A stretch of 30,147 nt of DNA from Chiloscyllium plagiosum (Eukaryota). The DNA lies in the NCBI RefSeq assembly GCF_004010195.1, contig NC_057719.1:26477426-26507572 (forward strand). The letters run 5' to 3'. Below the pieces are notes generated by a model. It was not told the DNA's origin. It did no database searches and saw only the letters and a list, made by a program, of their open reading frames with translations. Positions 1-29,832 of the stretch are shown one piece after another (the stretch's first letter is position 1; each line of letters begins with the position of its first letter). The position numbers and the translations under genes are program-made.

Positions 1-122
1 AAGAAGCTTGCAGGTCTGTGAGCATCTGTGGAAGAAAAAAAGTTAACATTTTGAGTCCAGTGATCCTCCTTTTAACATTCTGTTCCAGGTTTGTTTCAGG
101 TCTTCAGCACTTGCAGTTTTTA
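1..122. repeat. Degenerate Penelope terminal-repeat-derived fold-back fragment
   Basis: caggtct..gcatctgtgga..gttaacatttt and cagcacttgcagtttt are shared with copies at 3805-4000 and 25085-25205. Confidence 0.55.
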
Positions 123-222
123 TTCAAACATGATTTTGAAGTAGGCTTACTGTGGCTTGAATAAGCACACTATTTAGTTAGTAACTTGATCATTACTAAT
201 TCTTTGAAAATTTCTTTTTCAG

Positions 223-312
223 TATCCATATGCATTTGGACTACTCCTGGCTTCAAGCTGGTGTATCCTTGTTTGCCTCAGCCGACTGTACATGGGGATG
301 CATTCTATTCTG
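223..312 (+). CDS. SGPP1: Internal coding exon (exon 2 by human structure) of sphingosine-1-phosphate phosphatase 1
   Basis: Polypyrimidine tract plus AG at 221-222; 90 nt reading [30 protein letters not shown], which carries the PAP2 C3 motif SRxYxGxH; donor GTGAGT at 313; phase 0/0 joins in frame to the exon at 9957. Too short to appear in the ORF track. Confidence 0.95.
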
Positions 313-1508
313 GTGAGTAAATCATGATTTTGAATTATATTACTTTTTTGATTGGAGCTATTGACAAGTTTTTTTTTGAAGTTTTAAAATTTCAAAAGTG
401 ACATCTTGGCATTGCAACAGCATTGGTGTTCTATACTGGAAGCCTACAAACAACGTCTGTCTTTGTTCACGTGCTAAAATCTACTGTCCTTGGAAATGCA
501 CACTTCGAACATTTGAAGTCTACTATTGGTCTGTAAAATGGTAATGTTGGTGCTCTTTGAAAATGAAATAAAAATTGATTTATTTTTAAGTCAGACCTAT
601 AACAATTTAATTTTCTAATTTTACATAATGTTTCTCTTTCCATTTCTCCATTCTGTGGAAAATCAGTTGATACTGTGTACACTCATGTACACCGCAATAG
701 GGCACTGAAGCTTTCTCTGATCTGGAAAAACTCCGCATTAGCTGGGTTCGACTCTGAGCATATTTATAGCCCGTTTGATTCACTGTTTCCTGTAATCATT
801 AGCATCAACGACATTGTAACTTTGACAACCGTGTGAAAGTAGGGTTTCGTCAAATTACTGATGCAGTGCCAAGACATTGTTGACAACTGTAGTATGCTGT
901 CACTGTTACATTCTAGACTGGTACTGTTTTAAAAGTAAGCACACACATACATTTCAGCTTATGTATTCAAATCTAGGGTTAATAGTTTCAAAATTGTCAA
1001 TTTTTTTGGCCTGTATGTGATGTGGATTTGGCTGTTGGCATTCTGACATTTTCACACTGAAAACCTGCATCACTCCGTCTTCCACACAACCTGGAAAAGT
1101 AGCTTGAGCAATCATTTTAAGGCTTCCTCTTCATTTTCTTACCTGCATAATGATACAGCAGAATGACCTGTAGTATTGTAACATGTGTTTCATTAACATG
1201 AATTTGCTATAACGCTATTGGCAAATTGGGGACGCTGTTTCTAAATGAACTTTTAAAACGTGTTGGCTGTAACACAATTACATCACCAACATCTTTTAAA
1301 TGCCATTTCTAAAGCATGATTTTTCTATACTGCATAGTTGCACAAGAATGCAACAAAGCTTTGATGTTGGCAAATATATCTAGCTTTGTAAAACGAGCAT
1401 TTTTATGTTGCTGCAAATCATCATTAATGGGTGTGGTTATAAAGTCACAGACTCATACAGCATGGAAATAGATCCTTTTTGATCCAACCAGTCCACGCCA
1501 AATATGGT

Positions 1509-1819
1509 GGGCGGCACGGTGGCACAGTGGTTAGCACTGCTGCCTCGCAGCGCCAGAGACCCGGGTTCAATTCCCGACTCAGGCGACTGACTGTGTGGAG
1601 TTTGCACGTTCTCCCCGTGTCTGCGTGGGTTTCCTCCGGGTGCTCCGGTTTCCTCCCACAGTCACAAAGATGTGCAGGTTAGGTGAATTGGTCATACTAA
1701 ATTGCCCGTAGTGTTAGGTAAGGGGTAAATGTAGGGGTATGGGTGGGTTTCGCTTCGGCGGGTCGGTGTGGACTTGTTGGGCCGAAGGGCCTGTTTCCAC
1801 ACTGTAATCTAATCTAATC
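1509..1819 (+). mobile_element. Full-length HE1-type V-SINE (tRNA-derived)
   Basis: A box TGGCACAGTGG (1520-1530), B box GGTTCAATTCC (1564-1574), V-domain TGTGTGGAGTTTGCACGTTCTCCCCGTGTCTGCGTGGGTTTCCTCCGGGTGCTCCGGTTTCCTCCCACA, CR1-like tail GGGCCGAAGGGCCTGTTTCCA and (AATCT)n end; CpGs retained, so young. Confidence 0.9.
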
Positions 1820-1843
1820 ACTATGTTCCCAGCCTAAACTAGT

Positions 1844-2090
1844 CTTTTGCCTTTTAGGACCCTGCAACCACAGGATTAACATTGATTTCACCAATTTCCT
1901 GATCTCCCCCGGCCAACCTTTTGTCTTTTATCCCAATTCGAACCCTCCAACTTGGCACTGTCCTCCTGACCACGCACGCACGCGCGCACACGCATGCGCG
2001 CGCACGCACACACACACACCTTGGATGCTGTGCTTTTCCAGCACTACACCCTAGACTCTCTGATCTCCAGTGTCTGCAGTCCCTACTTTC
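1844..2090 (+). mobile_element. Penelope-like 3' fragment with ~17-bp target-site duplication
   Basis: Decayed GIY-YIG C-terminus (RTLQP-GINIDFTNF across a frameshift) and terminal repeat end (gctgtgcttttccagca..ctgcagtcc..actttctcc); flanked by TCCCAGCCTAAACTAGT (1827-1843) and TCCCAACCTAAACTAGT (2091-2107). Confidence 0.7.
1971..2019. repeat. Alternating pyrimidine-purine microsatellite (CA/CG mix)
   Basis: 49 nt of uninterrupted Y-R alternation including (CG)n runs. Confidence 0.9.
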
Positions 2091-2295
2091 TCCCAACCTA
2101 AACTAGTTCTACCTGCCTGCGCTTAGCCTGTATCCCTCCACAGCCTTTCCTATTTGTGAACTTATCCAAATGTCTTTTAAACGTTGTAACTGTACCTTTG
2201 TCAAGTTTGAACATAATTGGGGTGAAACCATGAAGGGATCTAAACATATGACTTTTAAATTTAGCATTTAATAGAACTAGGAGCCATTGTTGAGC

Positions 2296-2553
2296 GAGAA
2301 TTGCTTGAAGCATGGCACTCCAACTGGAATTCTATCAACAAACACACTGATTTGGATCCCATTTACACACACCCTCCCCTTGGGAAAATAACATGAAATG
2401 ACATCAGCAGCCCAAGGAAACTTAAACACACATAAATAAAACACAGGCCAAACCACCAGTGCTTCACCATAGGCTCACTGATGATGTTACCTAATATGGT
2501 GACAAAACTTCAGAAAACAACCTTCCAGCTCACCAAGCAAACCTTCATCCACA
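2296..2553 (+). mobile_element. Penelope 3' end / pseudo-LTR with hammerhead relic
   Basis: Reads ELLEAWHSNWNSINKHTDLDPIY (endonuclease C-terminus), then a terminal repeat homologous to 22197-22450 including CTGATGA-T-GTTACC-TAATAT-GGTGAC-AAAA at 2478-2507. Confidence 0.8.
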
Positions 2554-3804: not shown

Positions 3805-4003
3805 TGAAAACTGTTAGACAAACTCAGGTCTGGCAGCATCTGTGGAGTGAGGAAAAACTTTACGATCTGAGTTATACCAGACTTGAAATGTTAACTTTGT
3901 TTCTGAAATGTTAATTTTGTTTCTGTCTCCACTGATGCTGCCAGACATACTGACTGTCCCCTGCATTATGTTTCAGATTTCCAGTATCTGCAGCATTTTG
4001 TTT
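3805..4003. repeat. Degenerate fold-back Penelope terminal-repeat element
   Basis: Inverted arms gtctggcagcatctgtggag / ctccactgatgctgccagac; same family as 1-122 and 25085-25205. Confidence 0.65.
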
Positions 4004-4094
4004 ATGGTACATTCACCCCTCTTCACAACTTTTAACATCTGTCTACTATCATAACCCTCTTTATGCATTCATTTACGTATTTATTTCTGTCATT

Positions 4095-4200
4095 TTAATC
4101 AACCTATTCGAATGTATAATGACCTCTTGAAACAGGTGGGACATGAACCCAGCCAATCTAGCCTAGAGGTAGGGACACTTCCATAATGTCGTCATAAGGT
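4095..4200 (-). mobile_element. Old tRNA-derived SINE head fragment
   Basis: Minus strand reads gtgtccctacctct..gggttcatgtcccacctg, a decayed B-box-like head. Confidence 0.4.
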
Positions 4201-4455
4201 GCTTTTTTTTTTCCTCTGGTCCAGTTTTCCCCTGAAATGCAACTATTCTGTTTTATTCAACCATTCCTGTGGTGCAAAGTTTTACCTTGCCATAGGGTGA
4301 AGATGCTTTTTCTGAATTATCTATTGGATTTTCTGATGACTGTCTACGTTAAGTTCGATCTCACATGAGGCAACACAACTTTCTGTGTCCACTCTGTCAT
4401 TACAATTAAAAGCCATTGTTAGGTTACTCCCTGAGCCACTGCCTCAACAAGAGAA

Positions 4456-4650
4456 TTAAAAATCGCACAACACCAGGTTATACTCCAGCAGATTTATTTG
4501 GAAGTACAAGCATGGAGTGTGCTCCTTCATTTAGGTAGCTACCTAACCAAAAACTTTGTACTTGCAAATAAACCTGCCGGACTATAAACTAATGTTGTGA
4601 TTTTTTAACTTTGTCCACCCCGATCCAACATCAACACCTGCACATCACAT
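4456..4650. repeat. Palindromic pair of Penelope terminal repeats
   Basis: Arms aaaatcgcacaacaccaggttata..tttatttggaagtacaa / ttgtacttgcaaataaa..tataa..tgttgtgatttttt around central palindrome AGGTAGCTACCT (4533-4544); same family as 24175-24246 and 28268-28357. Confidence 0.75.
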
Positions 4651-5373: not shown

Positions 5374-5718
5374 TGTTAGGTTCCCTTCTTGAGCTTACAT
5401 GCTTGATTCAACTGCAATACTCCAACTTCTGTGAACAGCCACGATTTATTTAAGCAATTACAAGCTTTTGGAGGATCACTTAACACTCTTAGTGACGCTT
5501 GCAGAGCGTGTCAAGTGAGGCTTCCTGAACAAGAGAATCACTCTCCCTTTAGACAGGGTTTTGTATCCCAGTCAGTCATGATGCACGACACAACCCCCTG
5601 CCACTCCATAGTCACACTCCAAAAGCAATGTGAAGTGATTAGGTTGCTCCTCGAGGCGGTCTGTGACTTGGGCCGCTCCTCAAACTGCAGCATTTAGAGT
5701 ATGATTTAGATTGTCACA
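5374..5718 (-). repeat. 3' LTR (or related solo LTR)
   Basis: Minus strand TGTGACA...TAACA with AATAAA at 5445-5450; shares the identical block aaactgcagcatttagagtatgatttagattgtcac with the other LTR. Confidence 0.8.
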
Positions 5719-5829
5719 TCTGAAAAAGGTGCTGCCAGCTTATTCCTAGGAATCTCAGCCAGTATTTAGTCAAGTTATTGACACAACATACAGTGATTGA
5801 TTGATTGACAACTAGGAATTACTAGTTCA

Positions 5830-7462: not shown

Positions 7463-7464
7463 AA

Positions 7465-7804
7465 TGTGAAGTTCCCTTGAGATTCTTACATGCTTGATGC
7501 AACTTCAGGATGCCAATTTCTTTGAACAGCCATGATTTTATTTCAGCAAGTACAAGTTTTTGGAGGATCACTTAACGCTCTGCAAGCATCTCGAAGAGTG
7601 TGTGTCAAGTAAGGCTCCCTGAACAAGGGAACCATCCTCCCCTTTTTTTAATACAAGGTTTTATATCTGTCAGTCATGCATGCAGGACAAGCCACCCCCA
7701 CCCACCACTTTTTTTCCCCCCATAGTCACATGCCACAAAAAAACCATGTATGGTTAGGTTATTCCTTAAACTGCAGCATTTAGAGTATGATTTAGATTGT
7801 CACG
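7465..7804 (-). repeat. 5' LTR
   Basis: Minus strand (C)GTGACA...TTCACA with TATAAAA (7659-7665) upstream of AATAAA (7537-7542); homologous along its length to 5374-5718. Confidence 0.8.
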
Positions 7805-8319
7805 TCCTGCCTGCAAGACAGAATCCGCCCCCCACTCCAGCACATCCAATTTCTTATTTCAGCAGAACAAACTAACTCTAACATCTCAATATGGCCTGTC
7901 GCCTAGTCAGTGACAGTCATGACCCTGGTAGAAGGAATAAAATGTCCCATTCTGGTGTCATGGATGCAGCTGCAGAAATATCTATCTCTTCCCCTTTATG
8001 ATAGAATAACAATTGTACTCCCCTTTTTCCCTTGTAGTGTCTCTTGGTTTCTCAGGGAGATGAAACCTCTCCCATAGCACATACAAAACAGATTCTCTGG
8101 GGGGGGGTGTGAAGATAAATAACAGCCTTGCACTACCTGTCTAGTACTTTCACTGATGATTATCTGTTCTGCCTGCAGCTTTGTGGATGCTCCAGTGATT
8201 CTAGATACTGCTTCTGATCCAAAATGCAGGGCTGCAGCTGAAAATTTCATGCACGTGGAAGTGGCCCGAACTTAACAAATTGTACAGTAGGAGCATTACA
8301 CGTGAATAGTCTGGAGTCA

Positions 8320-9420: not shown

Positions 9421-9956
9421 TTGGTTATTTTTGCCTTGTAGAAATTTATTCTAAAGAGGATTTCAGTTGAAAAATCAATTGTTGAGATCCTATGCAAATT
9501 ATCCCTATGCATCATTTGGCTAGTGGCCTTTAAATGGAATACATTTACAACTATTTTATTTATAATTGCTTCAATGAGGCAGCAAAACCCAAAGTGCTGC
9601 TTTGGTGTACTATAAAGCAATAAGGAGACAATAGAGCAAATGACTAGTTGAACAAACCTAATTTCAACAAAAAAAAAATCTTCTTTAGGGAAGAATGCAC
9701 AGCCTAGACCCTTGACAGCTGAAGGCATGAATACCAATCGTGGGGAAAGTAGGAGCTGGAGTAGACTATTCAGTATGGTCATGGCAAATCCTCCATCTCT
9801 GTGCCATACTCCCACTTGCTTCCCTTTATCGGGGCAAAAAGGTTGAAATATTTGGTCATTGGTTGGTTGATGTTGTAGTTTGTGAATCTTGCTTTTTGAG
9901 ATGTGGTCAGATGCTTTATTTGAATTCCCTCATTAACTTTTTCTATTTTCTAATAG

Positions 9957-10508
9957 GATGTCATTGCTGGTGTGCTTTATAGCATCTTGATCCTGATCAT
10001 CTTCCACCCAGCTTTGGACATAATTGACAACTTCAACTTGACCTACAAGTATGCTCCTTTATTCATCATCAGCCTTCACTTAGGAATGGGACTCTTTTCA
10101 TTTACCCTCGACACGTGGAGCACATCCCGTGGTGACACTGCTGAAATTCTAGGCACTGGCGCAGGTATCGCTTGTGCCTCTCATTTCAATCACATGTTTG
10201 GCATATTACCAGACCCTCCTCTTGATGCTCTGCCGTTTTCTCCCCCAGTAATCTCAGTTAACCTTATTGCAAGAGCATTTTTACGTTTTGTCATTGGCGT
10301 AATTGTTCTGTTACTAACCAGAGCAGTGCTAAAAGCATGCACTATCCCGCTGGCCTGCAAGATATTCCGTATTCCATGCACTGACATCCGCCAGGCACGT
10401 AAGAGAATGGAGGTGGAACTTCCCTATCGTTACATGACATATGGAATGGTAGGATTTGTGGCACTCTTTCTGGTTCCCTCCTTATTTAATTACCTGAATC
10501 TCTCTTGA
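9957..10508 (+). CDS. SGPP1: Last coding exon of sphingosine-1-phosphate phosphatase 1
   Basis: Acceptor TTTTCTAATAG|GAT at 9956/9957; reads [13 protein letters not shown]...[17 protein letters not shown]...[16 protein letters not shown]...NLS-TGA (10506-10508). [15 protein letters not shown] and EVELPYRY match SGPP1 as I recall it; the initial D completes the SRxxxxxHxxxD motif begun in the upstream exon. Confidence 0.95.
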
Positions 10509-13500
10509 TGGGAGGAAAGGGTCCTTTTGACAGAGCCATTAATTGCAAGCTGGAATGCTAGATTTTAGACGGCAAGTTCCAGATCGGTTGCTTGTTCTGC
10601 CTGAACCCTTAAGCAGACCTCTGTTTGGCCACATTCACTTTCAGGCAACTAACTGCAGGTGTAAGTTAAGATATGATCACTTTTGAAGAAGTTGGTGGTT
10701 TTTTCCTATATCCATGTGGAAGATTTGAGACTCTTCTGAAGTCCACACAAGGAGCTGAAGACCATAAAAGGAGAAGGAAATCTAAATGGTTATGAAAATG
10801 CTTATGAATAAAGATCCTGCAAAAGCTTATTTAAATCTGTGCAGAATGAGTACAAGTATAATAAATGACTGAAGTTTCAGGTATCTAACAATTTATTCAA
10901 TTGTGCCTTTTTAGTTTTATTGAATGAGAATTGCTGCAGTTTCACCAATGGTTATCATTAATTTTAATTGCCTCAGATGATGAGTTGTGCAACGTTTTGA
11001 CATTCCATTGCTGTTTTAGTCTGTAATTTAAGTTTGGGTCACGGTCCTAATTTGCAACTGAAAGATACCTTCTAAGTGCTGCAATTTAAGAATTTTTTTT
11101 TAATCAGAGCACTGATTTTTTTTTTTTAAACTTTCTCTTTCCTAATTTTAGTTAGTCACATTGTTTTAAATGGGGTGTTTGTGCACAAAAACACTCATTT
11201 GAAATCCTTGACACTCTGTTTATTGTTTAGATTTTCAACCTGAGGTGATATAGTTAAATCTGATTACTTATGCCCCACATTTTAGACACCACATAGGATT
11301 GGACACCTGATCAAATGAAGTACTGACAACTAAAAGTTTTATTTCCCCAGTTGAAAGTTGAATCTCGTTCACTTCAACTGTCTCTGAAGACACAAACCAA
11401 TGTAACATTACAAATTTCTTGCAACCATGAAAGGATTGTCCATGTGCTAAGTCTCTTCTGTGTTCTGAACTCTGTCAAAAGAGAAGGTACTGCAATCTGT
11501 TAAATGCTTCCAAGATGTTGGAAAATTGCATCTTTTGCGGTGAATTAATGATAAAGCAATAGCTTGATAAATGTAGGTCTTGCAGACTGGTGGGAGACAT
11601 TTCGGTATTAAGGGAGAAGCTCCAAATTTGAGATTAGACATAACTGCATAGGTTCCTACATTGATAAGAAAGTGAGGTCTGCAGATGCTGGAGATCAGAG
11701 CTGGAAATGTGTTGCTGGAAAAGCGCAGCAGGTCAGGCAGCATCCAGGGAACAGGAGAATCGACGTTTCGGGCATAAGCCCTTCTCCTGTTCCCTGGATG
11801 CTGCCTGACCTGCGCTTTCCCAGCAACACATTTCCAGCTCCTACATTGATAACCACTTTGTGTACAATACTAAACAATTTAGTGATTTCCTCCACTAAAA
11901 TAAACCATGGTATATATTTTTTTTCCCTGCATGGCTCTTGCAGCTTTGCCCTATATGTAATGATGAATCTACTACCATGTATGAGGAAACTATTAAAGTA
12001 CTATTCTGATTTCTTTAGTTCTTGATTTGTATTTGCACTGACATGTTACGAAGGATATGAAAGCTGACTTTATTTGAAAGCTGTTCAATAAGTGGACCAT
12101 CTTGTCTTTTTCAAGATTGGGGGGAGATTACGTTTAATCTTTTCCTGCAGTTTAAACCTTTCCCAAAAAGATAACATGCTCAGACAAGAAATTTCCTGTT
12201 TTTCAGTGCATCTGTTTCTCAGTACCAGTGTTTTGCACAGTTTGTCACCTGAGGTGACAGTGTTGCTTTTTAGTAGTTTGTGAATGTGGAATGGGTGACA
12301 TGTGTAACCATTGATAATTCTTACAGGAACTCACTGTATGTGAGAGTACACAACATTAATCACTACCATACCGTTATGACAAAGTTGATTTTTATCTATA
12401 GAATGAACATTTTTTGTTTCCTATGCTCATTGCCTTATTCCTTGTAGCAGAAAGCCCAACAGGAAGAATGAACAGAACTAGCATAACATTTTGCGCACAC
12501 AAATGTGTGGAGGAATTGCTGGTTGTATTTAATATTCATATTACCTGCAGTATTCCATGTCACTCTGAAGACTGACCACGACTATAACTGTTTTTTAACT
12601 GACCACAAAATTTCAATTTGTTCTTGTCTTAAAAATCAGGCATTCCAATGTCACCTCCTATGAAATCTTTTGCATCATCTGCACTTTTTACTGTGGGATG
12701 TATAATTGTTATCTAGTTGAACACACTGCAAAGATCCTGGTTTTTAAAAACATGTAGCTACAGTTTTGTTGCTGAGAAAAATACCCTTCTTTCTGTTGAA
12801 AGTTTTTTTCTTAAATCATTTTAAGATTGCAAACATTTATCAAATTTTCTTGTATCATACTTTGTCTTTTTCTGAAATGATATCAGGCTCTGCATTCATG
12901 GAATTAATGAAAACAGAACTGTGATGTGCTGTAGGCAAGTTTTACATCTTGCAAGAGAGGGAGTGTCCTGTGGATCATGTGATTGACCAGAAAAGTTTCT
13001 TATGAAAAAATCAATCAGTGTCTCTGGATATTCCTCCCATTGGGCTTTCAGCTTTCTGGATTATACAGTATTGATGTACAGATTGAAGATTGACTTGTGT
13101 TAAACTACTTCTGGAGTTTTAATGTAAAAAGTGTCACTCCTGTACTTGATGAAATAGTACTTTTTAAAATTTGTATAATTTATCTTGGGACAGTAAATCT
13201 TATTCAAACTATGTAATTCTTCTAAGCATGGGCATGAAAAAGATTCTACTGAACCTGATTGGTTGTTTACATTTTATTTTTAAAAATCCAATTTCAAATT
13301 TATTTTGAGATGAATCTTATTTTACCTTGCTAGAAATAGCGAGGTTGGTTACTTCTATATTTCAGCAGTATTCCATGGTATTACACTTGTCTTTTATTCT
13401 ATTCCATTACACTTTGCATAGAGATGTAAATTCACTGTCATTGATATTCCCGAGGTAAAAATATTGATGTAACATGGAGATGGGATAGGCAAAATTAGTT

Positions 13501-16500: not shown

Positions 16501-16900
16501 AGTAAATGTATGGATACTTACTTTTGTTTAATGATTTATTATTTGAATGTTGAACAGTTATGAATGAAGATGCATTGCATTATTTTACCTGTGTTAATGA
16601 AACATGGAACAAAGTGTTTGTTTTTACTATGTTGTAATGCTAGAGTTTTTTTTGTCATGAGCATGAGTTTTGTTTTTTCTTAAACTTTTTTAAAATCTGT
16701 TTTAAAAGTTGGTTTTCAGATCACTATCTTCCCTTGGACCTTGTGACTTTCAAATATTGTAAGTTTGTGTGTTAATCATTGATTTTCATCCTATCCTCCA
16801 ACAGTTAGTTCTGCTGGTCAGCAATGTGATACATTTCACAATTCATTTTATGTAATTGCAGTTTGCACTAAGCTTAAAATAAAAAGTACAATGAAACTTG
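10509..16900 (+). other. SGPP1: Putative long 3' UTR of SGPP1 with alternative poly(A) sites
   Basis: AT/U-rich and almost free of recognisable repeats, unlike the flanks; AATAAA at 10807, 10860, 14727, 16878 and 16937. The true end cannot be fixed from sequence alone. Confidence 0.5.
11668..11838. mobile_element. Young fold-back Penelope terminal-repeat insertion with perfect 14-bp TSD
   Basis: TCCTACATTGATAA at 11654-11667 and 11839-11852; inverted arms 11698-11759 and 11782-11840; loop holds the hammerhead half GAAGGGCTTATGCCCGAAACGTC on the minus strand. Confidence 0.9.
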
Positions 16901-16911
16901 GCTTTGTGTGT
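16851..16911 (+). terminator. Candidate distal polyadenylation site
   Basis: TGTA at 16851, AATAAA at 16878-16883 and GU-rich TTGGCTTTGTGTGT at 16898-16911; repeat-derived DNA resumes within about 600 nt. Confidence 0.55.
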
Positions 16912-17454
16912 ACACGTTTATTCCTTTTAAAGGAGAAATAAAGTGCCAGCAAAAGTACTCCTTGGCTAGCACTTCCTAATAGTAAAATTTGTCATTTGGA
17001 AACCTTAAATCTTCTGTTTAACTCTCAGCAAAGTTGTCCAATATTTCAGACAGCAAGTAACTGTCAACAGTGACTTATTTTCAAGCTGGCGTGGAGAATA
17101 AATTTAAACTTAATCACCCTGGAGCTGCAAATACTTGTCAATATAATTGCTAATAACTTCCATATTTAAGCATTGTTCAGTTCAATTTTCTCTATTGTTG
17201 AACATTGTTCTACGTAAGCTAGATCTGTTAAAGCTATTGGATCTCTTCCAAATTGATTTATAGAAGCTTATTTGACAGTATATTTACTTTGCTTGTATTT
17301 TTAAACTTCCAGAGAAAAGTAAATTATGAAAGTAGACATGCAGCTTTTATTCTCCCAAACACTTTCAAGTTGAGGGTTGAGTATAAAGTACTCTAAATGC
17401 TACTAAGCTTGATGCAATAATGATTTAACTGAAAGCTATGTAATAATAGGTAAT

Positions 17455-19030: not shown

Positions 19031-19104
19031 GGAAGTATGTAGGGTACTAGTTGGTTCAGGTGGATTCAGTGGGTGTATGATGATTAAAGTCACACCTTTC
19101 ATTA

Positions 19105-20044: not shown

Positions 20045-22460
20045 ACTTCTAACCTGGTTGTAAGCTTGCTTGCTGAGCTGGTAGATTTGTTCTGACATTT
20101 CGTCACCATGCTGGGTAACATCAGTGAGCCTCCAGTGAAATGCTGGGGTTGTGTTTCACTGGCTATTTGTGTTTTCGTTTGATGTGAGCGATATCCCTTT
20201 CCATTCTTTTTCTGAGCGGTTGTGAAATGGGGTCCAAATCAAAATGTTTAACAATTCCAGTTTAGATGTCAGGCCTCTGAATTCCCATGCATGTCTTTGC
20301 TTAACCTGTCCTGGGATGGATGGTGTGTGTGTGTGTGTGATAGTTGGTCATGTCTTTTGGTGGCTAGTTGGTGCTCATTGTATCCTGGTGGCTAGTTTCC
20401 TGCCCGTCTGTCCAGTGTAATGTTTGTCCAGTCCTTGCAGGGTATTTTGTATATGACCTCTGACCTCTGTTCTGCTAGCTGTTGGTACTGGATCCTTTAA
20501 ATTCATCAGGAGCTGTTCAGTGTGGTGGTAGGTTTGTGGGCTACCATGCTGCTTAGGGGCGAGAGTAGTCTGGTTGTCATCTCCAAGGTGTCTTTTAATG
20601 TCTGGCAGATGGCTACAATCTCTCTGTGTGTTGTCGTCTTTTTTTAGGTCTGTCATGCAGGAATCAGCAAACTGCGCTCATCAGGCACCCATTATTCCTG
20701 GATACTTCATTTAGGTGTTTTCTTTCCTTTGGCGGCTTGTAGTTCCTCAGTGCTGTATTGTGTTGTGGCTCATTTAAATGTCCTGATGCAGCTCTGTTTG
20801 TGGGTGTTGAGATGATTGCTCCTGTAGTTGAGTATCTGGTCAGTGCATGCGGCTTTCCTGTAGAAGCTGGTCTGCAGCTCTACATTTAGCTTTTTGTTCT
20901 ACTATGACATCCTAGGAAGGGGAGTTTGTTGTAGTCATCGGTGCACTTTATACCAGTAAGGATGTTGTTTGTGGGTTCCTTCTAATTTGTTGCATTTTGT
21001 GATGACAAAGATGTCATCCACATAGCAGACTCGAAGCCTGGGCTATATTGTGGGAAGGGATGTTTGTTCTAACTTTGGGATAACTGCTTTTGCTTAGAGT
21101 CCTGATATTAGTGATCCCATAGGTATCCTATTGATTTGTTTATAGATCTTGTTGAAGGTGAATTGGGTTGAGAGGCACAGGTCTACTGTTTTTGAGGATG
21201 CTGTCCTGCTGATGGAGTGGTGCTGTCAGGTGTTTGTGTCCTTGGTTGTTGGCTAGGGTGATGTGAATAGGGACATGTTGAACAAAATGTCCTCAGCCTT
21301 GGTGTCTTTGAGGAATTCCTGGGTGGCTTGAGTCTTCCAGGTGTTTGTGTTGCAGTTCCCTTTAGTAGTCTGTTTGTAGCTGAACTGGGATGTGAGACAA
21401 TGGGTCTGAGGGGACCCTTGCTTATGTACCTTTCGGTAATCTGTAGAAACGGAGCATGTTGGATTCTTTCGGTTTTATTCTTTGCAGGTCAGTCTTGTTA
21501 ATTTCACCTGTTGTGTAAAGTTTCCTCAGGGTAGCAGTAGTATGGTTTTCTGGCTGTGGACTCTGGTCGATTGCTGCCTGTAGGTATCTACAGGTATGTA
21601 CAGGTATCTACAGGTTTGTATCTGTGAGCAGTGTGTTTGCTTTTTCAATGTATTGTTCTGTTCAGAATGACAGTCATGCACCTTTTTGCCTGCCGGTTGG
21701 ATTGCAATATTTCTGTCCTCCTCCTTGAGTTCTGAGTTGTTGAGGGTGTTCCCTTTCTTTCTGCTTAGTGTTAGTGTTACTGTTTGTCTGATGGCCTGCC
21801 CAATCTCTTCTGTAAATATGTTGTCTTTTAGGGAGGATTCCGGTGCTGCTAAAAAGTCCCTTTTTTTTTGTTCACGGTCCTGTTGTTGAATTCATCCCTT
21901 GTACAAGGATGACCGTTTCCGTGCCTGTTATCGGTCCAACAAGTTCTTTATCCAAGTCTCTCTGAGCTGTCTGTTTTATTGCTGAGCGAGAGCTTGGCCA
22001 GATCTTATTAGTAGGGTTTTTCTTTTCTTTGGTCTGCTGTTGTTTAGTGTTGGTTCGTTCTAACGTACTTGTCCATTCGTGGTCAGTCGCACTAGTGTAC
22101 AGAGTTTCTTGGTCAGAATACGCACAATTGAAAGACATCAGTTTGACTTGGACAATACATCCATCTCTGGGTAGACTAAACAAAGACACAGGAATTCCTA
22201 GACGCCTAGCATTCCAATTAGAATTCAATTAACAAACATCAATTTGGACATCATTTAGCAACCTCTCCTAAAAGAACCATAAGTGATATCGCCCACCACA
22301 ACAGACCAAGACCCCAAATAGCCAATGGGACAGAACACCAGCACTTCATCGAAGGCTCACTGATGTTACCTAGCATGGTGACGAAACATCTGAGAATAAA
22401 TCTACCACTTCAGTGAGCAAACTGACAACCTGATCCACAAGCTGAGTTACAACTCTTCTT
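20045..22460 (-). mobile_element. Decayed Penelope-like retrotransposon (RT + GIY-YIG) with inverted terminal repeat
   Basis: Minus-strand motifs in order: FYRLPK (~21450), LRPIVS (~21410), MGSLISG (21120), YVDDIFVI (21024-21001), FYRKAACTDQILNYRSNH (~20865), HYTGQTGRKLATRIQ (~20420); terminal repeat at 20045-20325 mirrored on + at 22128-22460; many stops and frameshifts. Confidence 0.9.
21581..21620 (+). repeat. 4 x 10-nt tandem repeat (CAGGTATSTA)
   Basis: taggtatcta caggtatgta caggtatcta caggtttgta. Confidence 0.85.
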
Positions 22461-23094
22461 TAAAATTTCAAACCTACTAAATAATTTGAGTTTGACACTC
22501 CTCCACCCCTGCTCTAAGTCCCCTTTCTGCCATACTGTAACCTTCTCCTTTCCCTGAACACTGACCAAATCAGATGATCTCCTCCTAAGAAGTGTGAAAG
22601 CCTCCTGGCACAGACAATTCTGGTAACTTTATCCTTCTCTGATGCATTGCAGTCTCTGTACCTCTCATACCAAACTCCAAACCAAATTGTGTTTACTGCT
22701 CAAATTGTACTTCAGATATACTTTCACTGGATCACCGTGGTAGCCAGGAGCTCCTGTATGCTGCAGCCTTGTCACCACTTGAGTGCAATCCTTGACTAGT
22801 TTAAATGTCATTAAATCACTATTACCATTCTCGCTTCTATGAATATCTTAGCAGCATTTGTTTCATTAGTGAACACCAATGCAAGGTATTCTTACATTTC
22901 CAAGACTTCCCTCTGCCTCTAATTATACTTTTATCACCTTCATTCCCAATCAAGTCCACTGGAATTTTACCACCAGCTTAATGTTTGGCTACCTCTTTTG
23001 ATAACTGCCATTGAATTCTCTTTTCTTTTTGCCAAATCTATTTTCTTCTTCTTCGAGCTGAGGAGTGAAGTATTTGGTCTAGTTCTTATTCGAG

Positions 23095-23450
23095 ATGAAT
23101 GTACAAATTAGGACCACATGTTAGCCATTTGGCCCTATGAGTCTGTCCTTCATTCAAAGAGATAATGGCCGATCTGTGTGTTTCAAATTTCACATCCCTA
23201 TCTATTCTCGATAATCTCAGATTTTTGTCTTCCAGGAAATCATGCAATTACCTCCCCTCCACCACCTTCTGAGGCACAGTTCAAAGTTTCTCAATCCCCA
23301 AGAGGAAAGATTTCTGATAAAAAAATTAAGGGCTAACCTTTTAAAAAGTGCTCCTTAATCCTGCACTTGTCCACAAGAGGGAATAGTATTTCCACATTGT
23401 ACCTTCATAACCACCTTTTCAGAATCTTATGATTCTGATCAACTCACTTG
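23095..23450 (-). mobile_element. Old CR1-type 3' fragment
   Basis: ttagga..gccatttggccct..gagtctgtcc..cattcaa..gataatggccgatctg tail-like pattern followed by RT C-terminal remnants. Confidence 0.45.
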
Positions 23451-23592
23451 ACATGCATCATACTGTTTTTGATTCTTTGTATTCTCTATCCCTCTTGTCT
23501 TCAAGGAGCTATTACTTTTGTTTTTCCTGCTCTTCCTTTTAATTGGAATGTAGCCTGTACCTGAAACATCCTTCCCTGATAGACCCACCCAA

Positions 23593-23770
23593 TACAGAGG
23601 ACCTCGATTATCCGAATACCAATGTCCTGAAAATAGGATTAGCTGGAGGAGATCAAGGCCACAATGGAAACATTACATCAAAGACTTTTTTTTTTCCCCC
23701 AACAGTGATCGTGTCTTTTGTTTAGTGATTAAACAGGCACGGTCTCCAAATGACTGTCTGTCTCCCCTCT
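23593..23770 (+). mobile_element. Tigger/pogo-like DNA transposon end fragment
   Basis: TA followed by CAGAGGACCTCGATTATCCGAA (23595-23616), resembling Tigger-type TIRs; no partner TIR found. Confidence 0.45.
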
Positions 23771-23904
23771 TTCCCCCCCACCCCCAACATGGGTATTAAT
23801 GTTAAATATTATATGGATTGACTACTCAAAAAAAAAAGCAGAACCTGCAAGCAGGCAGTAAATCCATATAATATTTCTAAATTCCACTTTGGAAATGGAA
23901 GCAG

Positions 23905-24246
23905 CCTGACTCAAGATTGCGATTCAGACAGACTCCAACCTCACACATTTAATGCATTGTCTGAGTGGAGCTGTCAACTTCAGGTTTTATGACAAAAGTT
24001 ATGTTGTGAATGTGACTTTAAAAGTGATTCTGGAGTTTACATATTGAAGAACCAAAACTAGCAACCCCATTCTAAAAGTTGAAAGACTTAACTAACTAGG
24101 TTTGTTCAATGTATCATTGTATCACTATAATCGTTTGCTACAAATTCTGTCTCTTATGGTCCTGCTTCACAACCACCTGATGAAGGGCCAGTGCTTCCAA
24201 ATAAACCTGTTGGACTATAACCTGGTGTTGAGTGGTTTTTAACTTT
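23905..24246 (+). mobile_element. Penelope-type 3' region and terminal repeat
   Basis: Ends cacCTGATGAagg..gtgcttccaaataaacctgttggactataacctggtgttg..tttttaacttt, the reverse complement of 28268-28357. Confidence 0.7.
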
Positions 24247-24915
24247 GATGGTTTGCATTGTCCATTACAAAAGTAAGGGGAAGTAGGGAGAAAGAAGTGA
24301 ATAAAAATGCAGTTGGAGGTGGAAAGAAAGCACCGTATCTTCCCCTCTACTGAATTTTCCAGCTGACACGAAAGATTCATTTGGAGTTCTGTCATTGTGG
24401 ATACATCACAGGCAAGTGGATTAGGGTCATAAGTTTATATTTTTAATAAATCATACTTGACAGTTGACTACCAGAATGGCACTTATTAAGAACAGACTGT
24501 TCAAAACTCCTAATGAGCACACTGCAAATGTTTGATTTATTTTGTTACCCACTTTTAAAAATCTTTTCATCTCTTTGCTGCTTTTCTTGAAAGGTATATT
24601 TTGCCACAAGCCATGTACCATCTTGGTGGAACTAATAGTGTTAAAGCTAACAGATCATTTGGACATGGGGAATATCACTTTCAAGTGGAATAGCCAGATG
24701 ACTTTCCACTTACATCATTTAAAATTCTAGGTGCCATATGCAACATGGTTTGTGACACATTCCGAAATGGCAGTTTGAATCCTGGAATTTAATTTGCTGA
24801 GATACATAGCAGTATTCACTGATTATTTTCCCTTTCTACATTACTGTATTCTTTGGATTTACCATCACTTCTAATTTATAGGCATCATAGCATGATAATT
24901 AATGGAGTCAAGAAG

Positions 24916-25060
24916 AAAACCAGAGTTTAAATCAGAGTATTCCTGATGGGCTTTTGCCCGAAATGTCAATTTTCCTGCTCCTCGGATTCTGCCTGACCTG
25001 CTGTGCTTTTCCAGCACCACTCTGATCTAAACTCTGGTTTCCAGCATCTGCGGCCCTCCC
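24916..25060 (+). repeat. Penelope terminal repeat with short inverted arm and hammerhead relic
   Basis: aaaccagagtttaaatcagagt (~24918-24939) is inverted at 25019-25040; CTGAT-GGGC-TTTT-GCCC-GAAA-TG-TC at 24943-24967; same family as 11668-11838. Confidence 0.8.
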
Positions 25061-25084
25061 TTTCATCGAGAAGAAAACGATTAA

Positions 25085-25205
25085 ATGTTCTGAAGAAGGA
25101 TTACTTGACCTGAAATGTTAAGTCTGATTTCTCCCTATAAATGCTGAATTGTCCAGCAATTTCTATTCTTGTTTATGATTTCCATCATTCACAGTACTTG
25201 GTTTC
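25085..25205 (+). repeat. Degenerate Penelope terminal repeat with hammerhead relic
   Basis: CTGAAGA-AGG..TGACCT-GAAA-TG-TT at 25090-25119. Confidence 0.6.
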
Positions 25206-25377
25206 ATTTTGAGAAAAAAAAACAGATTTAGCAGGCATTACTGAAAGACTTGCTGAATTTAGACAAGATGGTGAGTCACAGGACTTCAATATATGACCCA
25301 TTTGCATGTTTTGGAGGCCTTGAATATTTGGTTACCTTTGCAATCCCTTCATTACCAGTGAGCATCCGCAGTCCCAT

Positions 25378-26116
25378 TAGAGTCATAGAGATGCACAGCA
25401 AGGAAACAGATCCTTCGGTCCAACTTGTCCACCCAACCCATCTGCCAACACCCGGCCCATATCCCTCACAACCCCTCCTATTCATATACCCATCCAGATG
25501 CCTTTTAAATGTTGCAATTGTACCAGCCTCCACCACTTCCTCTAGCAGTCTATTGCGCACATGCGTGGAAAAGTTGCCCCTTACGTCTCTTTCATATCTT
25601 TTCCCTCTTACCCTAAACCTATGCCCTCTACTTCAGGACTCCCCAAACTCAGGGAAAAGACCTTGTCTATTTACCCTATCCATTCCCCTCGTGGTTTTAT
25701 AAGCCTCGATAAGGTCACCCCCTCAAGACTGCGTGCTCCAGGGAAAAAAAACAGTCCCAGCCTATTCAACTTCTCCCTATAACTCAAGTTCTCCAACCCT
25801 GGCAACATCCTTGTAAATCTTTTCTGAACCCTTTCAAGGTTCACAACATCCTTCCGATAGGAAGGAGACCAGGATTGCATGTAATATTCCAAAAATGGCC
25901 TAACCAATGTCTTGTACAGCTGCAACATGACCTCTCAATACTCTGACCAACAAAGGAAAGCATACCAAACTCCTTCATTATCCTATCTATCTGCAACTCT
26001 ACTTTCAAGGAACTATGAATCTGCACTCCAAGGTCTGTTCAGCAGCACTCCCCAAGATTTTTAAGTGTATAAGTTCTGCTAAGATTTGCTTTCCCAAAAT
26101 GCAGCACCTCGCATTT
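25378..26116 (-). mobile_element. CR1/HER1 LINE 3' fragment (copy A)
   Basis: Minus ORFs LYKTLVRPFLEY..WSP, LERVQKRFTRMLPGL and EAGTIATFKRHLD; tail ends ...ctctatgactct. Confidence 0.92.
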
Positions 26117-28255
26117 AGAGTCATAGAGATGTACAGCATGGAAACCTGTCCATGCCAACCAGATATCCCAACCCAATCTAGTCCCACCTGCCAGCACCCA
26201 GCCCATATCCCTCCAAACCCTTCCTATTCATGTATCCATCCAAATGCCTCTTAAATGTTGCAATTGTACCAGCCTCCACCACTTCCTCTGGCAGCTCATT
26301 CCATACACGTACCACCCTCTGCGTGAAAGGGTTGCACCTTAGGTCTCTTTGATATCTTTCCCCACTCACCCTAAACCTATGCCCTCTAGTTTTGGGCTCC
26401 CCAAACCCAGGGAAAAGACCTTGTCTATTTACCCTATCCAAGCCCGTCATGGTTTTATAAACCTCCTTAAGGTCACCCCCTCAAGACTGTGTGCTCCAAG
26501 GAAAACAGTCCCAGCCTATTCAACATCTCCTGATAGCCCAAATTCTCCAACCCTGGCAACATCCTTGTAAATCTTTTCTGAACCCTTTCAAGTTTCACAA
26601 CATATTTCCGATAGGAAGGAGACCAGAATGCACGCAATATTCTAACAGTGGTCTAACCAATGTCCTGTACAAACTCAACATGACCTCCCAACTCCTGTAC
26701 TCAATACTCTGACCAATAAAAGAAAGCATACCAAATGCCGCCTTCACTATCCTATCTACCTGTGACTCCACTTTCAAGGAGCTATGAACCTGCACTCCAA
26801 GGTCTCTTTGTTCAGCAACACTCCCTAGGACCTTACCATTAAGTGTATACGTTCTGCTAAGATTTGCTTTCCCAAAATGCAGCACCTCGCATTTATCTGA
26901 ATTCTAGTTCTCCCTGTATTCCATGAGATCTAACCTTGCTAATCAGTCTCCCATGGGGAACCTTGTCGAACGCCTTATTGAAGTCCATATAGATTACATC
27001 TACTGCTCTGCCCTCATCAATCCTCTTTGTTACTTCTTCAAATACCTCAATCAAGTTTACAAAATTATGAGGGGCATTGATAGGATAAATAGACAAAGTC
27101 TTTTCCCTGGGGTCGGGGAGTCCAGAACTAGAGGGCATAGGTTTAGGGTGAGAGGGGAAAAATATAAAAGAGACCTAAGGGGCAACCTTTTCACGCAGAG
27201 GGTGGTACGTGTATGGAATGAGCTGCCAGGTGGAGGCTGGTACAATTGCAACATTTAAGAGGCATTTGGAAGGGTATATGAATAGGAAGGGTTTGGAGGG
27301 ATGGGTGCAGGCAGGTGGGACTAGATTGGGTTGGGATATCTGGTCGGCATGGACGGGTTGGCCCGAAGGGTCTATTTCCATGCTGTACATCTCTATGACT
27401 CTAAGTTTGTGAGACATGATTTCCCATACACAAAGCCATGTTGACTATCCCGAATCAGTCCTTGCCTTTCCAAATACATATACAACCTGTCCCTCAGGAT
27501 TCCCTCAAACAACTTCCCACCACCGAGATCAGGCTCACTGGTCTATAGCTCCCTGGCTTGTCCTTACCACCCTTCTTAAAAAGTGGCACCACATTAGCCA
27601 ACCTCCAGTCTTCCAGCACCTCACCTGTGACTATCGATGATAAAGATATCTCAGCAAGAGGCCCAGCAATCACTTCTGTAGCTTCCCACAGAGTTCTCGG
27701 GTACACCTGATCAGGTCCTGGGGATTTATCCACCTTTGTGCGTTTCAAGACATCCAGCACTTCCACCTCTGTAATCTGGACATTTTGCAAGATGTCACCT
27801 CTATTTCCCTACAGTCTATATCTTCCATATCCTTTTCCACAGTAAATACTGATGCAAAATACTCATTTAGTATCTCCCCCATTTTCTGCGGCTCTACACA
27901 AAGGCCGCCTTGCTGATATTTGAGGGGCTCTATTCTCTCCTTAGTTACCCTTTTGTCCTTAATGTATTTGTAAATTCCCATTGGATTCTCCTTAATTCTA
28001 TTTGCCAAACAATCTCATGTCCCCTTTTTGCTCTCCTGATTTCCCTCTTAAGTATACTCCTACTTCCTTTATACTCTTCTAAGGATTCATTCGATCTATC
28101 CATCTATCCAGACATATGCTTCCTTCTTTTTCTTAATCAAACCTTCAATTTCTCCAGACATCAGAAATCTGTATACCTACCCGCTTTTCCTTTCACCCTA
28201 ACAGGAATATACTGTCTCTGCAACCTCGTTATCTCATTTCTGAAAGCTTCATACC
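26117..28255 (-). mobile_element. CR1/HER1 LINE ORF2 remnant (copy B), interrupted at 27053-27408
   Basis: KSPGPDQVYPR, DWRLANVVPLFKKG, YRPVSLISVV, HGFV, DVIYMDFNKAFDKVPH, RDLGVQV, LVRPLLEYC; the segment that would encode GVPQGS and (F/Y)ADD is missing near 26900. Confidence 0.92.
27059..27402 (+). mobile_element. 5'-truncated CR1/HER1 (copy C) inserted antisense into copy B
   Basis: YKIMRGIDR..ESRTRGHRF..FTQRVVRVWNELP plus full tail; AAGTTT duplicated at 27053-27058 and 27403-27408; removing it restores SCLTNLIE in copy B. Confidence 0.9.
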
Positions 28256-28267
28256 TCATTAATGCCC

Positions 28268-29731
28268 AAAGTTAAAAATCACACAACACTAGGTTATAGT
28301 CCAACAGGTTTAATTAGAAGCACATTAGCTTTCAGAGTGTCGCTCCTTCATCAGGTGATAGTGGAGGGCTCAATCCTAACACACAGAATTTATAGCAAAA
28401 ATCTACAGTGTGATGTAACTGAAATTATACATTGAAAAATTGATTGTCTGTTAAGCCTTTCATCTGTTAGAATACCGTGTTTGTTTCACTTCTTTCATGT
28501 GTAAATCACAAAACCTTTTTTTAAGAAGTTGCATTCTCAGGTTAGCTGTTAACAATGGTGATAGCTAGACAATATGTTGGCCCCTGTGTTCTCTGTCTAT
28601 GCCATGATGTTTAGATTGATTCTAATCTAAAAATTGAGATAATGGAGTTTTACATGAATTCATGCAGTTTTTGAGCTCAGAGTTCTACATGAATGCGTGC
28701 AGTTTTTGAGCAAAGTACAATGTAACCCTGAAAGTACAAATTCACCCCACAAAATATATGTGTGCATGTGGGTCTTTGTCTGTGTGTGTGTGTCTGTCTG
28801 GGTTGGGGGTTGTGAGTGTGAGAAAGTGTGTGTGTGTGTGTAGTGAGTGCAGAGCATCTTAAGTCTGTGAGGGGTTTCATGTGTGAGTGTGGAAGTGTGT
28901 GTGTGTCTGTAAGGGTGTGTTTGGGTGTCTGTGTATATGTGTGTCCGTGTGTATGTATGTATAGGAGTGCCTGTGTGTGTTTGAGAGTGTGCGTGTGTCG
29001 GAGTATCTGTGTGTGTATATAGTGCAATGGTGGTCACCTGTAATATGACATGAGCCCAAGGTCCCAGTTGAGGCCCTTCCTATGGGTACCGAACTTAGCT
29101 ATCAGCCTCTGCTCGGCCAGTTTTTTCTGCTGCCTGTCCCGAAGTCCACCTTGGAGGATGGTCACCCGAAAGTCCCAGGCTGAATGTCCTGGACCGCTGA
29201 AGTGTTCCCCAACTGGGAGGGAACACTCCTGTCTGTTGATTGTGCGGTGCCCATTCATTTGTTGTCGTAGCCTTTGCTCAGTTTCCCCAGTGTACCAGGG
29301 TTCATGTCACATTACAGGCGACCACCATTGCACTATATACACACACAGGCACTCCTATACACACATACACACGGACACACATATACACAGACGTGCGCAC
29401 AGACACCCACACACACCCTTACAGACACATACTCCCACACTCAAACATGCACCCCCTCACAGACCTAAGATGCTCTGCACTCACTACACACACAAATACA
29501 CTTTCTCACACTCACAACCCCCAACCCAGACAGACACACATACGCAAAGACTCACATGCACACATATATTTTGTGGGGTGAATTTGTACTTGTAGGTTTA
29601 CATTGTACTTTTCTCAAAAACTGCATGCATTCATGTAAAACTCTGTTATCTCACTTTTTAGATTAGAATCAATCTAAACATCATGGCATAGACAGAGAAC
29701 ACAGGGGGCCAACATATTGTCTAGCTATCAC
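28268..29731 (-). mobile_element. Penelope-type 3' end (GIY-YIG C-terminus, CA-rich 3' UTR, terminal repeat) with inverted partial copy
   Basis: Minus 29297-29034 reads WYTGETEQRLRQQMNGHR..PVGEHF..GHS..AEQRLIAKFGTHRKGLN; 28558-29057 is mirrored at 29298-29731; terminal repeat with hammerhead core at 28268-28357. Confidence 0.88.
28321..28358 (-). ncRNA. Minimal type I hammerhead ribozyme motif (best-preserved copy, probably impaired)
   Basis: UCAC-CUGAUGA-A-GGAG-cgaca-CUCU-GAAA-GC-UA-AUGUG: both core boxes and stem II present; stem I has a C/A mismatch next to the cleavage site. Confidence 0.6.
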
Positions 29732-29832
29732 GTCTATTTTGCTGCTCCTCGGATGCTGCCTGAACTGCTGTGCTCTTCCAGCACCATTAATCCAAAATCT
29801 GGTTTCCAGTATCTGCAGTCATTGTTTTTACC
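29732..29832 (+). repeat. Penelope terminal-repeat 3' half
   Basis: gtc..ttttgctgctcctcggatgctgcctga.ctgctgtgct.ttccagcacca..tctggtttccag.atctgcag matches 24965-25052. Confidence 0.8.

Follow-up and report, generated by a model that had tools for sequence, protein, structure and literature searches.

Hammerhead ribozyme relics in short repeats, probably ends of Penelope-like elements, around a shark SGPP1 gene

Motifs resembling minimal hammerhead ribozymes recur along 30,147 nucleotides of Chiloscyllium plagiosum DNA (the window, meaning the whole stretch that was analysed), and the question was whether they descend from Penelope-like elements (PLEs) and whether any of them still acts on RNA. 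Protein comparison identified the host as the SGPP1 locus, around which the relics are scattered; the SGPP1 exon matched a Chiloscyllium punctatum protein at 99% and whale shark SGPP1 at 98%. A sequence-only reading had placed ten sites in four Penelope families, with pairing and core boxes kept, and had proposed a very large genomic population, some of it possibly active in host transcripts.

All ten sites were found where that reading had put them, to within a few bases, and all lie inside dispersed repeats with homologous copies in the window (Table 1). With one relic that had been missed, the density is 11 relics in 30 kb. Box 1 (CTGANGA) was intact at four of the ten sites (2478, 24177, 25090 and, on the minus strand, 28354) and the GAAA box at six (22360, 24943 and 25090; 11762, 20094 and 28321 on the minus strand). 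Both boxes and the UH triplet were present only in the copies at 28326-28354 (minus) and 25090-25119 (plus), and the helices of both are damaged. In the former, stem II has a G-U pair at its base and the first pair of stem I is broken by a C-A mismatch; in the latter, stem II contains one mismatch and stem I is weakened (the family majority has C at 25122). The pairing said to be kept was found for stem II of families 1 to 3; one or both core boxes are broken in eight of the ten copies. Stem II, with the G10.1-C11.1 pair and one extra base after A9, is formed by GTTACC/GGTGAC, GGGC/GCCC or GGAG/CTCC. Stem I has 3 bp in the majority sequences of families 3 and 4 and about 2 bp in family 2. At positions 15.2-16.2 the palindrome reads CG in the 11762 copy and GC both in the 28354 copy and in the majority sequence of family 3; four other sites have TG or CA, likely products of CpG decay, and all three family-4 copies have TG, not CG. 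The identification of the motifs as relics of minimal type I hammerheads was supported.

Table 1. Positions of hammerhead relics, repeats and associated features in the window
Feature	Position	Strand	Remarks
Family 4 relic	44..75	-	both boxes decayed; inverted arrangement 1-125 (by eye); SGPP1 intron, antisense
Family 2 3' tail fragment	2026..2091	+	without hammerhead
Poseidon-type terminal repeat	about 2298-2551	+	holds the 2478 relic
Family 1 relic	2478..2513	+	box 1 and stem II intact, A for G12; SGPP1 intron, sense
Family 4 relic	3875..3908	+	unlisted earlier; without box 1; inverted insertion 3828-4006; SGPP1 intron, sense
Family 3 inverted pair	4456-4640		plus arm bears AC-rich tail
Family 3 relic	4510..4535	-	both boxes decayed; SGPP1 intron, antisense
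SGPP1 last coding exon	9957..10508	+	preceding exon 223-312; splice sites
Family 2 insertion	11668..11838	-	inverted 5' piece; 14-bp target duplication; antisense
Family 1 relic	20094..20124	-	3-nt deletion in box 1; in 3' terminal repeat of Poseidon-type copy
Poseidon-type RT and GIY-YIG ORF remnant	20254..21411	-	decayed (frameshifts, stops); tblastn with P0001, E 9e-54
Inverted 5'-truncated copy (ORF end and terminal repeat)	22091..22430	+	same insertion as 20094
Family 1 relic	22360-22390	+	box 1 deletion identical to that at 20094
Family 3 terminal-repeat fragment	24016..24247	+	fixed 3' end at 24247
Family 3 relic	24177-24190	+	box 1 only; without 3' half of stem II and GAAA
AATAAA	24200-24205	+	family-3 repeat
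Poly(A) addition point of family-3 reads	about 24220	+	240 reads, RNA run X21
GT-rich tract	24223-24240	+	family-3 repeat
Family 2 insertion	24921..25068	+	short inverted 5' piece; 10-bp target duplication
Family 2 relic	24943-24967	+	3-nt deletion in box 1
Family 4 relic	25090..25119	+	both boxes intact; TG instead of palindromic pair
Neptune-type terminal repeat	28267..29030	-	holds the 28354 relic
Family 3 relic	28326..28354	-	best preserved; both boxes, GC palindrome, CTA triplet
Neptune-type GIY-YIG endonuclease ORF	29037..29297	-	C-terminal end; 86% identical to P0002, E 9e-46
Inverted 5'-truncated Neptune-type repeat copy	29298..29731	+	without hammerhead
Family 2 fragment	29730..29831	+	without core; starts at cleavage triplet

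Two of the families adjoin remnants of PLE proteins. Family 1 lies beside an ORF in which the reverse transcriptase (RT) is followed by the GIY-YIG endonuclease and which ends in the terminal repeat, the order characteristic of Penelope/Poseidon; the relative of this ORF does not carry the CX2-5CxxC linker. Judged from the adjoining remnant, family 1 is Poseidon-type. The RVT_1 match in the remnant (E 5e-4) is below the curated cut-off of Pfam and was the only match among 8 read-through frames, and no Pfam family was found in 7 stop-free pieces of the window. The relics at 20094 and 22360 are the two arms of one insertion and have the 3-nt deletion in common. Of the family-3 ORF no more than the final 88 residues lie in the window; its relatives P0002, P0007 and P0011 contain the linker, a mark of Neptune/Nematis (PMC8557442). 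By its adjoining ORF remnant family 3 is Neptune-type, although Nematis has the linker too. The cut predicted for the 24177 relic is between 24190 and 24191.

No RT/GIY-YIG ORF was found beside families 2 and 4 in the window, and pattern scans for loci linked to family 2 or 2/4 gave 0 matches in viral contigs. Two such scans of genome contigs gave 0 and 2 matches, the two being unrelated bacterial DNA. Since the two families are alike downstream of the core and lack an ORF here, three lineages are likelier than four, and the two probably represent one further lineage at different ages, with a Penelope origin that we infer from the architecture. The proposal of four Penelope families stood for families 1 and 3, terminal repeats with adjoining ORF remnants, and is weaker for families 2 and 4. 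The family 2 insertion at 11668..11838 forms a near-perfect hairpin (-122 kcal/mol, z -17.6), and the inversion has cut off the first five bases of box 1 of the relic at 11760-11784. This insertion probably lies in the SGPP1 3' UTR; among the datasets listed for 9700-13500, none of which is recorded as RNA, those presumed to be RNA contain 0.78-0.87 of its sequence words.

Families 2 and 4 could instead be stand-alone non-autonomous elements, retrozyme- or SINE-like and about 130-150 bp long from the hammerhead, moved in trans by a Penelope-like protein, a possibility that we regard as real but doubtful. The missing ORF would fit it, as would the fact that other family-2 copies part a few bases ahead of box 1 (agreement of 0.42-0.51 in the loose ends before 24944), the clean 10- and 14-bp target duplications at two of the four family-2 insertions, and a read depth about 150-fold that of family 1, a ratio not taken as a copy number because short contigs overlap. 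Non-autonomous PLE derivatives are also known, one chondrichthyan included (bioRxiv 10.64898/2026.07.22.740005). However, tandem arrays, the defining trait of non-LTR retrozymes, are absent from the window, a 5'-truncated PLE gives an equally short product, and inverted 5' pieces fit insertions of autonomous PLEs. The two explanations differ in the template only, not in the origin of the motif.

The preferred reading is that the sites are very probably decayed minimal hammerheads in short repeats, likely all of them insertions of 5'-truncated PLE ends, that no longer cut RNA; two of the families adjoin the protein remnants described above. Inverted 5' pieces, a hallmark of PLEs that a 2014 supplement (PMC4209133) describes for a minimal-hammerhead element as well, were seen in 7 of 12 insertions (one read by eye). 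Target duplications of at least 10 bp were found at 2 of the 11 junction pairs tested, and three 7-bp matches were taken as chance. Truncated 5' ends and inverted 5' copies occur together with fixed 3' ends and an optional tail, the latter in family 3, where two of three insertions share a single 3' end point and the third, like 1018 contigs, carries an AC-rich tail. Head-to-tail tandem arrays with intact hammerheads were absent among the direct repeats of the window.

For anole Poseidon, reverse transcription from fixed internal points downstream of the hammerhead has been demonstrated (PMC11167929). Internal start points are suggested here by 3' ends that are fixed some 55-100 nt beyond the cut, and by the optional AC-rich tail of family 3. 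Reverse transcription of PLE RNA would begin at such points, and most cDNAs would end early, so that the commonest insertion would be the last 100-300 bases, hammerhead included, in many cases with its 5' piece inverted. The ancestral motif may have consisted of box 1, one extra base, a stem II of 4-6 bp, GAAA, a two-base palindrome for stem III and a short stem I; as published for other species, it would have needed either a second copy, as a dimer, or the protein of the element in order to cut. Inserted copies would then decay neutrally, mainly through the loss of CpG around GAAA-CG and through slippage of 3 nt within box 1.

Sequencing reads were used to look at other genomic copies. From one DNA run 101,785 contigs aligned to 3.2 kb of the window, and depth, which is not a copy count, was 1e4 to 5e6 in repeat bins as against 5-18 in unique bins, in line with the very large genomic population that had been proposed. 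In family 3 the majority letters restored an intact core together with stem II and G1.1 (X1, 713 and 479 contigs; X21, 272 reads); in family 2 they restored an intact box 1 (845 and 485 contigs). The core majorities among the matches listed are those of families 2 and 3, and agreement was only 0.42-0.77. The family-2 loose-end majority at 24969 is a CpG-decayed triplet. The same core layout recurred at 110 loci in metagenome DNA of other animals (6 of 64 parts scanned), none of them homologous to the families of the window and four with PLE ORF matches within 1.5 kb. Only 66 of 111 metagenome motifs had a stem II of at least 4 bp, so some of them are chance matches.

In 240 RNA reads a terminal poly(A) stretch begins about 30 nt beyond the cut site of family 3, preceded by AATAAA. 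This suggests that the family-3 repeat supplies polyadenylation sites, and the site is on balance likely to be real. In a further reading the repeat would be a dispersed 3'-end cassette in sharks: with AATAAA, a used poly(A) site and a GT-rich tract 10-50 nt downstream of the cut, thousands of its sense insertions might terminate transcripts, whether of the host or non-coding, and intact copies might clip off their own poly(A) tail via a second copy or the element's protein. Taken as a whole this reading is highly improbable, the clipping being its unlikely part.

There is also little chance that the host has recruited some copies, so that intact ones cut transcripts and the family-3 poly(A) site is served by a tail-removing hammerhead 30 nt upstream. 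The poly(A)-ended reads at 24220 would agree with this, as would the 272 reads with an intact-core majority and the abundance of family 2 and 3 sequence in polyA RNA reads of both strands, against no reads from unique flanks; mammalian Clec2 3' UTR hammerheads act in this way according to the review PMC6765202. However, those 272 reads pass through the cut site uncut, and read ends do not pile up there (a weak test for fragmented 3' libraries). Published PLE hammerheads showed no cutting as monomers and low activity as dimers (PMC4209133), or needed the element's protein (PMC11167929), and eight of nine Xenopus retrozyme dimers were uncut. None of the five relics within the SGPP1 unit is both unbroken and in sense orientation, and the suggested activity in host transcripts was left unsupported.

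In 40 dinucleotide shuffles of the window CTGANGA alone had a mean count of 17.75, and the 22 occurrences observed are at chance level. The strict descriptor matched one site and nothing in each of 20 shuffles, and with one stem mismatch it matched two (shuffle mean 0.15, maximum 1). One core mismatch gave five sites, only two of them listed ones, and two core mismatches gave nine against 5.5 in shuffles, again chance level. Relaxed matches at 12772, 21529, 7062, 9451 and 17070 were taken as chance because they lack repeat context. With a profile HMM four listed sites scored 8.1-11.8 bits, nothing else exceeded 3.5, and 30 shuffles gave 0.07 matches at 8 bits or more; this profile was built from 99 motifs of other organisms chosen with the family 2-4 pattern, which makes the test partly circular and leaves family 1 outside it. 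A search of Rfam up to an E of 5 yielded no hammerhead; its six weak matches were to other families, and its miRNA matches at 11.7 kb, which reflect the inverted repeat there, were rejected. When three window copies were folded by minimum energy, each singly and as a dimer, the full hammerhead fold, which the method does not model, did not appear. It is extremely improbable that chance similarity was read into unrelated repeats: eight of the ten sites lack a box, Rfam is silent and the loosest patterns occur at chance counts, but strict descriptor and HMM matches exceed the shuffles, location in PLE terminal repeats matches the published one, and the boxes are whole again in the majority sequence of other copies, which largely refutes it.

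The known association of PLEs with hammerheads is hereby extended to sharks, and fragments of PLE ends belong to the commonest repeats of this genome, which is unsurprising and of help in repeat annotation. The importance would rise with evidence of wide use of the family-3 polyadenylation site, or of cutting of host RNA by any dispersed copies.

The phenomenon, including the genome-wide scatter of single decayed copies, was already described in 2014 (Cervera and de la Pena, PMC4209133), although sharks are unnamed in the parts of that paper and the two supplement files searched. The metazoan minimal hammerheads described there have the same type I layout with an extra base after A9 and the G10.1-C11.1 pair, and at 15.2-16.2, in place of helix III, a palindrome such as some of the window copies keep; they likewise form several consensus families per genome with opposite-strand pairs, and are mostly single copies tied to truncated PLEs. 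The density in the window is far above that of the 4,000 motifs of coelacanth and 9,000 of Xenopus given there, counts that comprise intact motifs only. Non-LTR retrozymes, reported in one chondrichthyan, are similar as short non-coding type I hammerhead repeats akin to PLE terminal repeats (PMC7229834; bioRxiv 10.64898/2026.07.22.740005), but they form head-to-tail tandem arrays with intact ribozymes, whereas the window copies are single or inverted and decayed. In the mammalian Clec2 3' UTR hammerhead the cut site precedes the polyadenylation signal, as in the family-3 repeat; the review PMC6765202 describes it as a conserved, active, discontinuous ribozyme of one gene family, whereas family 3 is known here from sequence and reads. 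Anolis Poseidon (Frangieh et al. 2024, PMC11167929) shares the terminal-repeat hammerhead, the fixed 3' ends, the optional AC-rich tail downstream and the absence of RNA-seq ends at the cut site; the window copies differ from it in being dead and known from their sequence, and in having the tail in the Neptune-type family 3.

All ten sites at which minimal hammerhead relics had been proposed lie at the stated positions, each inside a dispersed repeat. Since 20094 and 22360 are the two arms of one insertion, the sites represent nine insertions; an additional relic was found at about 3875-3908. The full pattern, described by the sequence-only reading as recurring, was present with both core boxes at only two sites: box 1 (CTGANGA) was intact at four sites and GAAA at six, but one or both were missing at eight of the ten. 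At 20094, 22360 and 24943, members of two families, box 1 has been inactivated by a similar slippage deletion of 3 nt.

Coordinates of the relics and of neighbouring features in the window
Feature	Position	Strand	Remarks
Relic, both boxes intact	28326-28354	minus	C-A mismatch at first pair of stem I; G-U at base of stem II
Relic, both boxes intact	25090-25119	plus	stem II mismatch; TG in place of expected palindrome
Relics in SGPP1 unit	44-75, 4510, 11762	antisense	
Relic in SGPP1 unit	2478	sense	lacks G12
Relic in SGPP1 unit	3875	sense	lacks box 1
Decayed RT and GIY-YIG ORF	20254-21411	minus	tblastn E 9e-54 to zebra shark protein; RVT_1 E 5e-4
Inverted truncated copy of family-1 element	22091-22430		
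Last 88 residues of GIY-YIG ORF	29037-29297	minus	86% to homologous protein P0002
AATAAA to GT-rich tract, family-3 repeat	24200-24240	+	poly(A) reads come from other copies
SGPP1 exon, 90 bp	223-312		
SINE-like element inserted in LINE fragment, SGPP1 intron	1507-1820		read by eye; presumably tRNA-derived
Two-copy repeat, SGPP1 intron	5374-5720, 7465-7806		~2.09 kb apart, 76-97% alike; possibly ends of LTR-like element
Direct and inverted LINE 3' fragments, nested	25377-28240		taken to be CR1-like from translated ends; no Pfam match
GC-rich stretch	29850-30147		probably promoter or first exon of next gene

CTGANGA alone occurs at chance level (22 in the window, 17.75 in shuffled sequences). 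A strict descriptor detected one site in the window and none in each of 20 shuffles, and two sites versus 0.15 were obtained when one stem mismatch was allowed; at looser settings the counts dropped to chance. An HMM built from 99 motifs of other organisms scored four of the ten sites at 8.1-11.8 bits, with 0.07 such hits per shuffle, in a test that is partly circular because the training motifs were picked with a pattern drawn from families 2-4. An Rfam search of the window returned no hammerhead match. The same core layout was found in an estimated ~1500 metagenome stretches, many apparently animal host DNA; PLE ORF matches lay nearby at 4 of 110 such loci.

To obtain family majorities, four runs were compared with 22080-25260 at 80% likeness. 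The prediction that consensus sequences keep intact boxes held for family 3 and partly for family 2. Upstream of 24190-24191, the majority of family-3 loose ends (713 and 479 contigs in the DNA contig run X1, 272 reads in the polyA RNA run X21; agreement 0.56-0.77) carries both boxes, the GGAG/CTCC stem, a GC palindrome and a CTA or CTT triplet. Family-2 loose ends at 24944-24973 have an intact box 1 and the GGGC/GCCC stem, the triplet being CpG-decayed in that subset. At 25122, the sole family-1 or family-4 core position among the rows listed, the family majority (G to C) restores stem I of family 4.

In X1, 101,785 contigs matched 22080-25260. Peak depth, which is not a copy count, was 5.4e6 for family 2, 1.3e6 for family 3, 3.4e4 for family 1 and 1.4e4 for family 4, versus 5-18 in unique bins. 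The proposed very large genomic population is supported by repeat depth. This agrees with the presence of four insertions of family 2 and three of family 3 within 30 kb, and we infer a copy number of the order of 1e5.

Type assignments of families 1 and 3 follow an ORF linker criterion. The ORF at 20254-21411 continues into the repeat carrying the 20094 relic. Its relative lacks the CX2-5CxxC linker, which by PMC8557442 points to Penelope/Poseidon; family 1 is accordingly assigned to this type. The GIY-YIG ORF end at 29037-29297 continues into a 764-bp repeat with the 28354 relic, also present as an inverted copy. Because relatives of this ORF carry the linker, family 3 appears to be Neptune-type. 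The Neptune-type insertion may sit within a family-2 copy at the GAAA/triplet region (28258-28266, 29730-29831); its left flank (28258-28266) is similar to the last part of stem II in family 2, and no target duplication was found at these borders. The Neptune-type endonuclease end also occurs in four predicted shark host proteins, P0003, P0010, P0016 and P0017 (PPP1R12A-like, GPCR, septin 5a and follistatin-related 5), reflecting either exonisation or a gene-model artefact.

For families 2 and 4 no ORF was found in the window, nor did searches for linked loci in viral and genome contigs find one. The two families are alignable over 100 bases after the core (mean column identity 53%, seven rows), and their core, together with fixed 3' ends and pieces inverted at the 5' side, leads us to infer a PLE origin. 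An inverted 5' piece was present in 7 of 12 insertions (one read by eye); PMC8557442 counts this feature among the PLE hallmarks, alongside 5' truncation and a tail of 30-40 bp. By analogy with a result from the anole, if reverse transcription is primed internally, 55-100 nt beyond the hammerhead, and is truncated early, most insertions would consist of the end that carries the hammerhead. Cleavage by the ancestral motif would require a dimer or the protein of the element. Copies have then decayed, chiefly through the loss of CpGs and through slippage of 3 nt in box 1.

The window (vertebrate DNA of bamboo-shark-like origin, 40% GC) contains host gene SGPP1; the product of its exon 9957-10508 shares 99% identity with a protein of Chiloscyllium punctatum and 98% with SGPP1 of the whale shark. 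The 3' UTR is probably very long (10509-16950, plus strand; AATAAA at 10807, 10860, 11899, 14727, 16878 and 16937). Of the words of 9700-13500, a fraction of 0.87 occurs in run X9 and 0.82 in run X14, and both runs lack depth at 24327-24754, a pattern that fits RNA, the RNA nature of both being a guess; the family-2 insertion at 11.7 kb therefore probably lies within this 3' UTR. In the mRNA orientation the insertion folds into a long hairpin, near-perfect at 11668-11838 (-122 kcal/mol, z -17.6) and with a 14-bp target duplication; it is a candidate target of A-to-I editing or of dsRNA sensors.

Hammerhead positions are numbered, and the canonical layout of a poly(A) signal is taken, according to established usage, and transposon-derived poly(A) sites are well known in general. 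The suggested ribozyme activity in host transcripts found no support in the window, all five relics in the SGPP1 unit being antisense or broken; G12 is the general base (PMC6155905). In X21, sampled at 2%, family-2 and family-3 reads occurred on both strands and unique flanks had none, indicating co-transcription of other copies. Read ends did not accumulate at any point, although this is a weak test. In 240 reads family-3 sequence switches to poly(A) at 24220 (agreement 0.83; median loose length 67). The switch lies 15 nt downstream of AATAAA, ahead of a GT-rich tract and ~30 nt past the predicted cut. Depth across this point fell from 166.7 to 54.8 in one direction and from 93.7 to 62.3 in the other. 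These reads may come from a genomic A-run in some copies; the junction was absent among the loose-end rows listed for contig runs. The data suggest that the Neptune-type repeat carries a functional polyadenylation site, and 24200-24240 is a possible dispersed polyadenylation site. We found no published report of one in this repeat.

The motif class itself is already described (PMC4209133). No paper naming shark PLE hammerheads was found, and shark families may be listed in the supplements of PMC4209133 or of a preprint (bioRxiv 10.64898/2026.07.22.740005) that traces tandem retrozymes back to PLE repeats and has one chondrichthyan among its species. PMC4209133 reports families, single-copy scatter in truncated PLEs, opposite-strand pairs and low activity, and the motifs of the window share the first three. 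Two of the three family-3 insertions in the window end at 24247, and 1018 contigs run beyond it into an AC-rich tail. This is the two-end signature that PMC11167929 explained by reverse transcription starting at two internal points.
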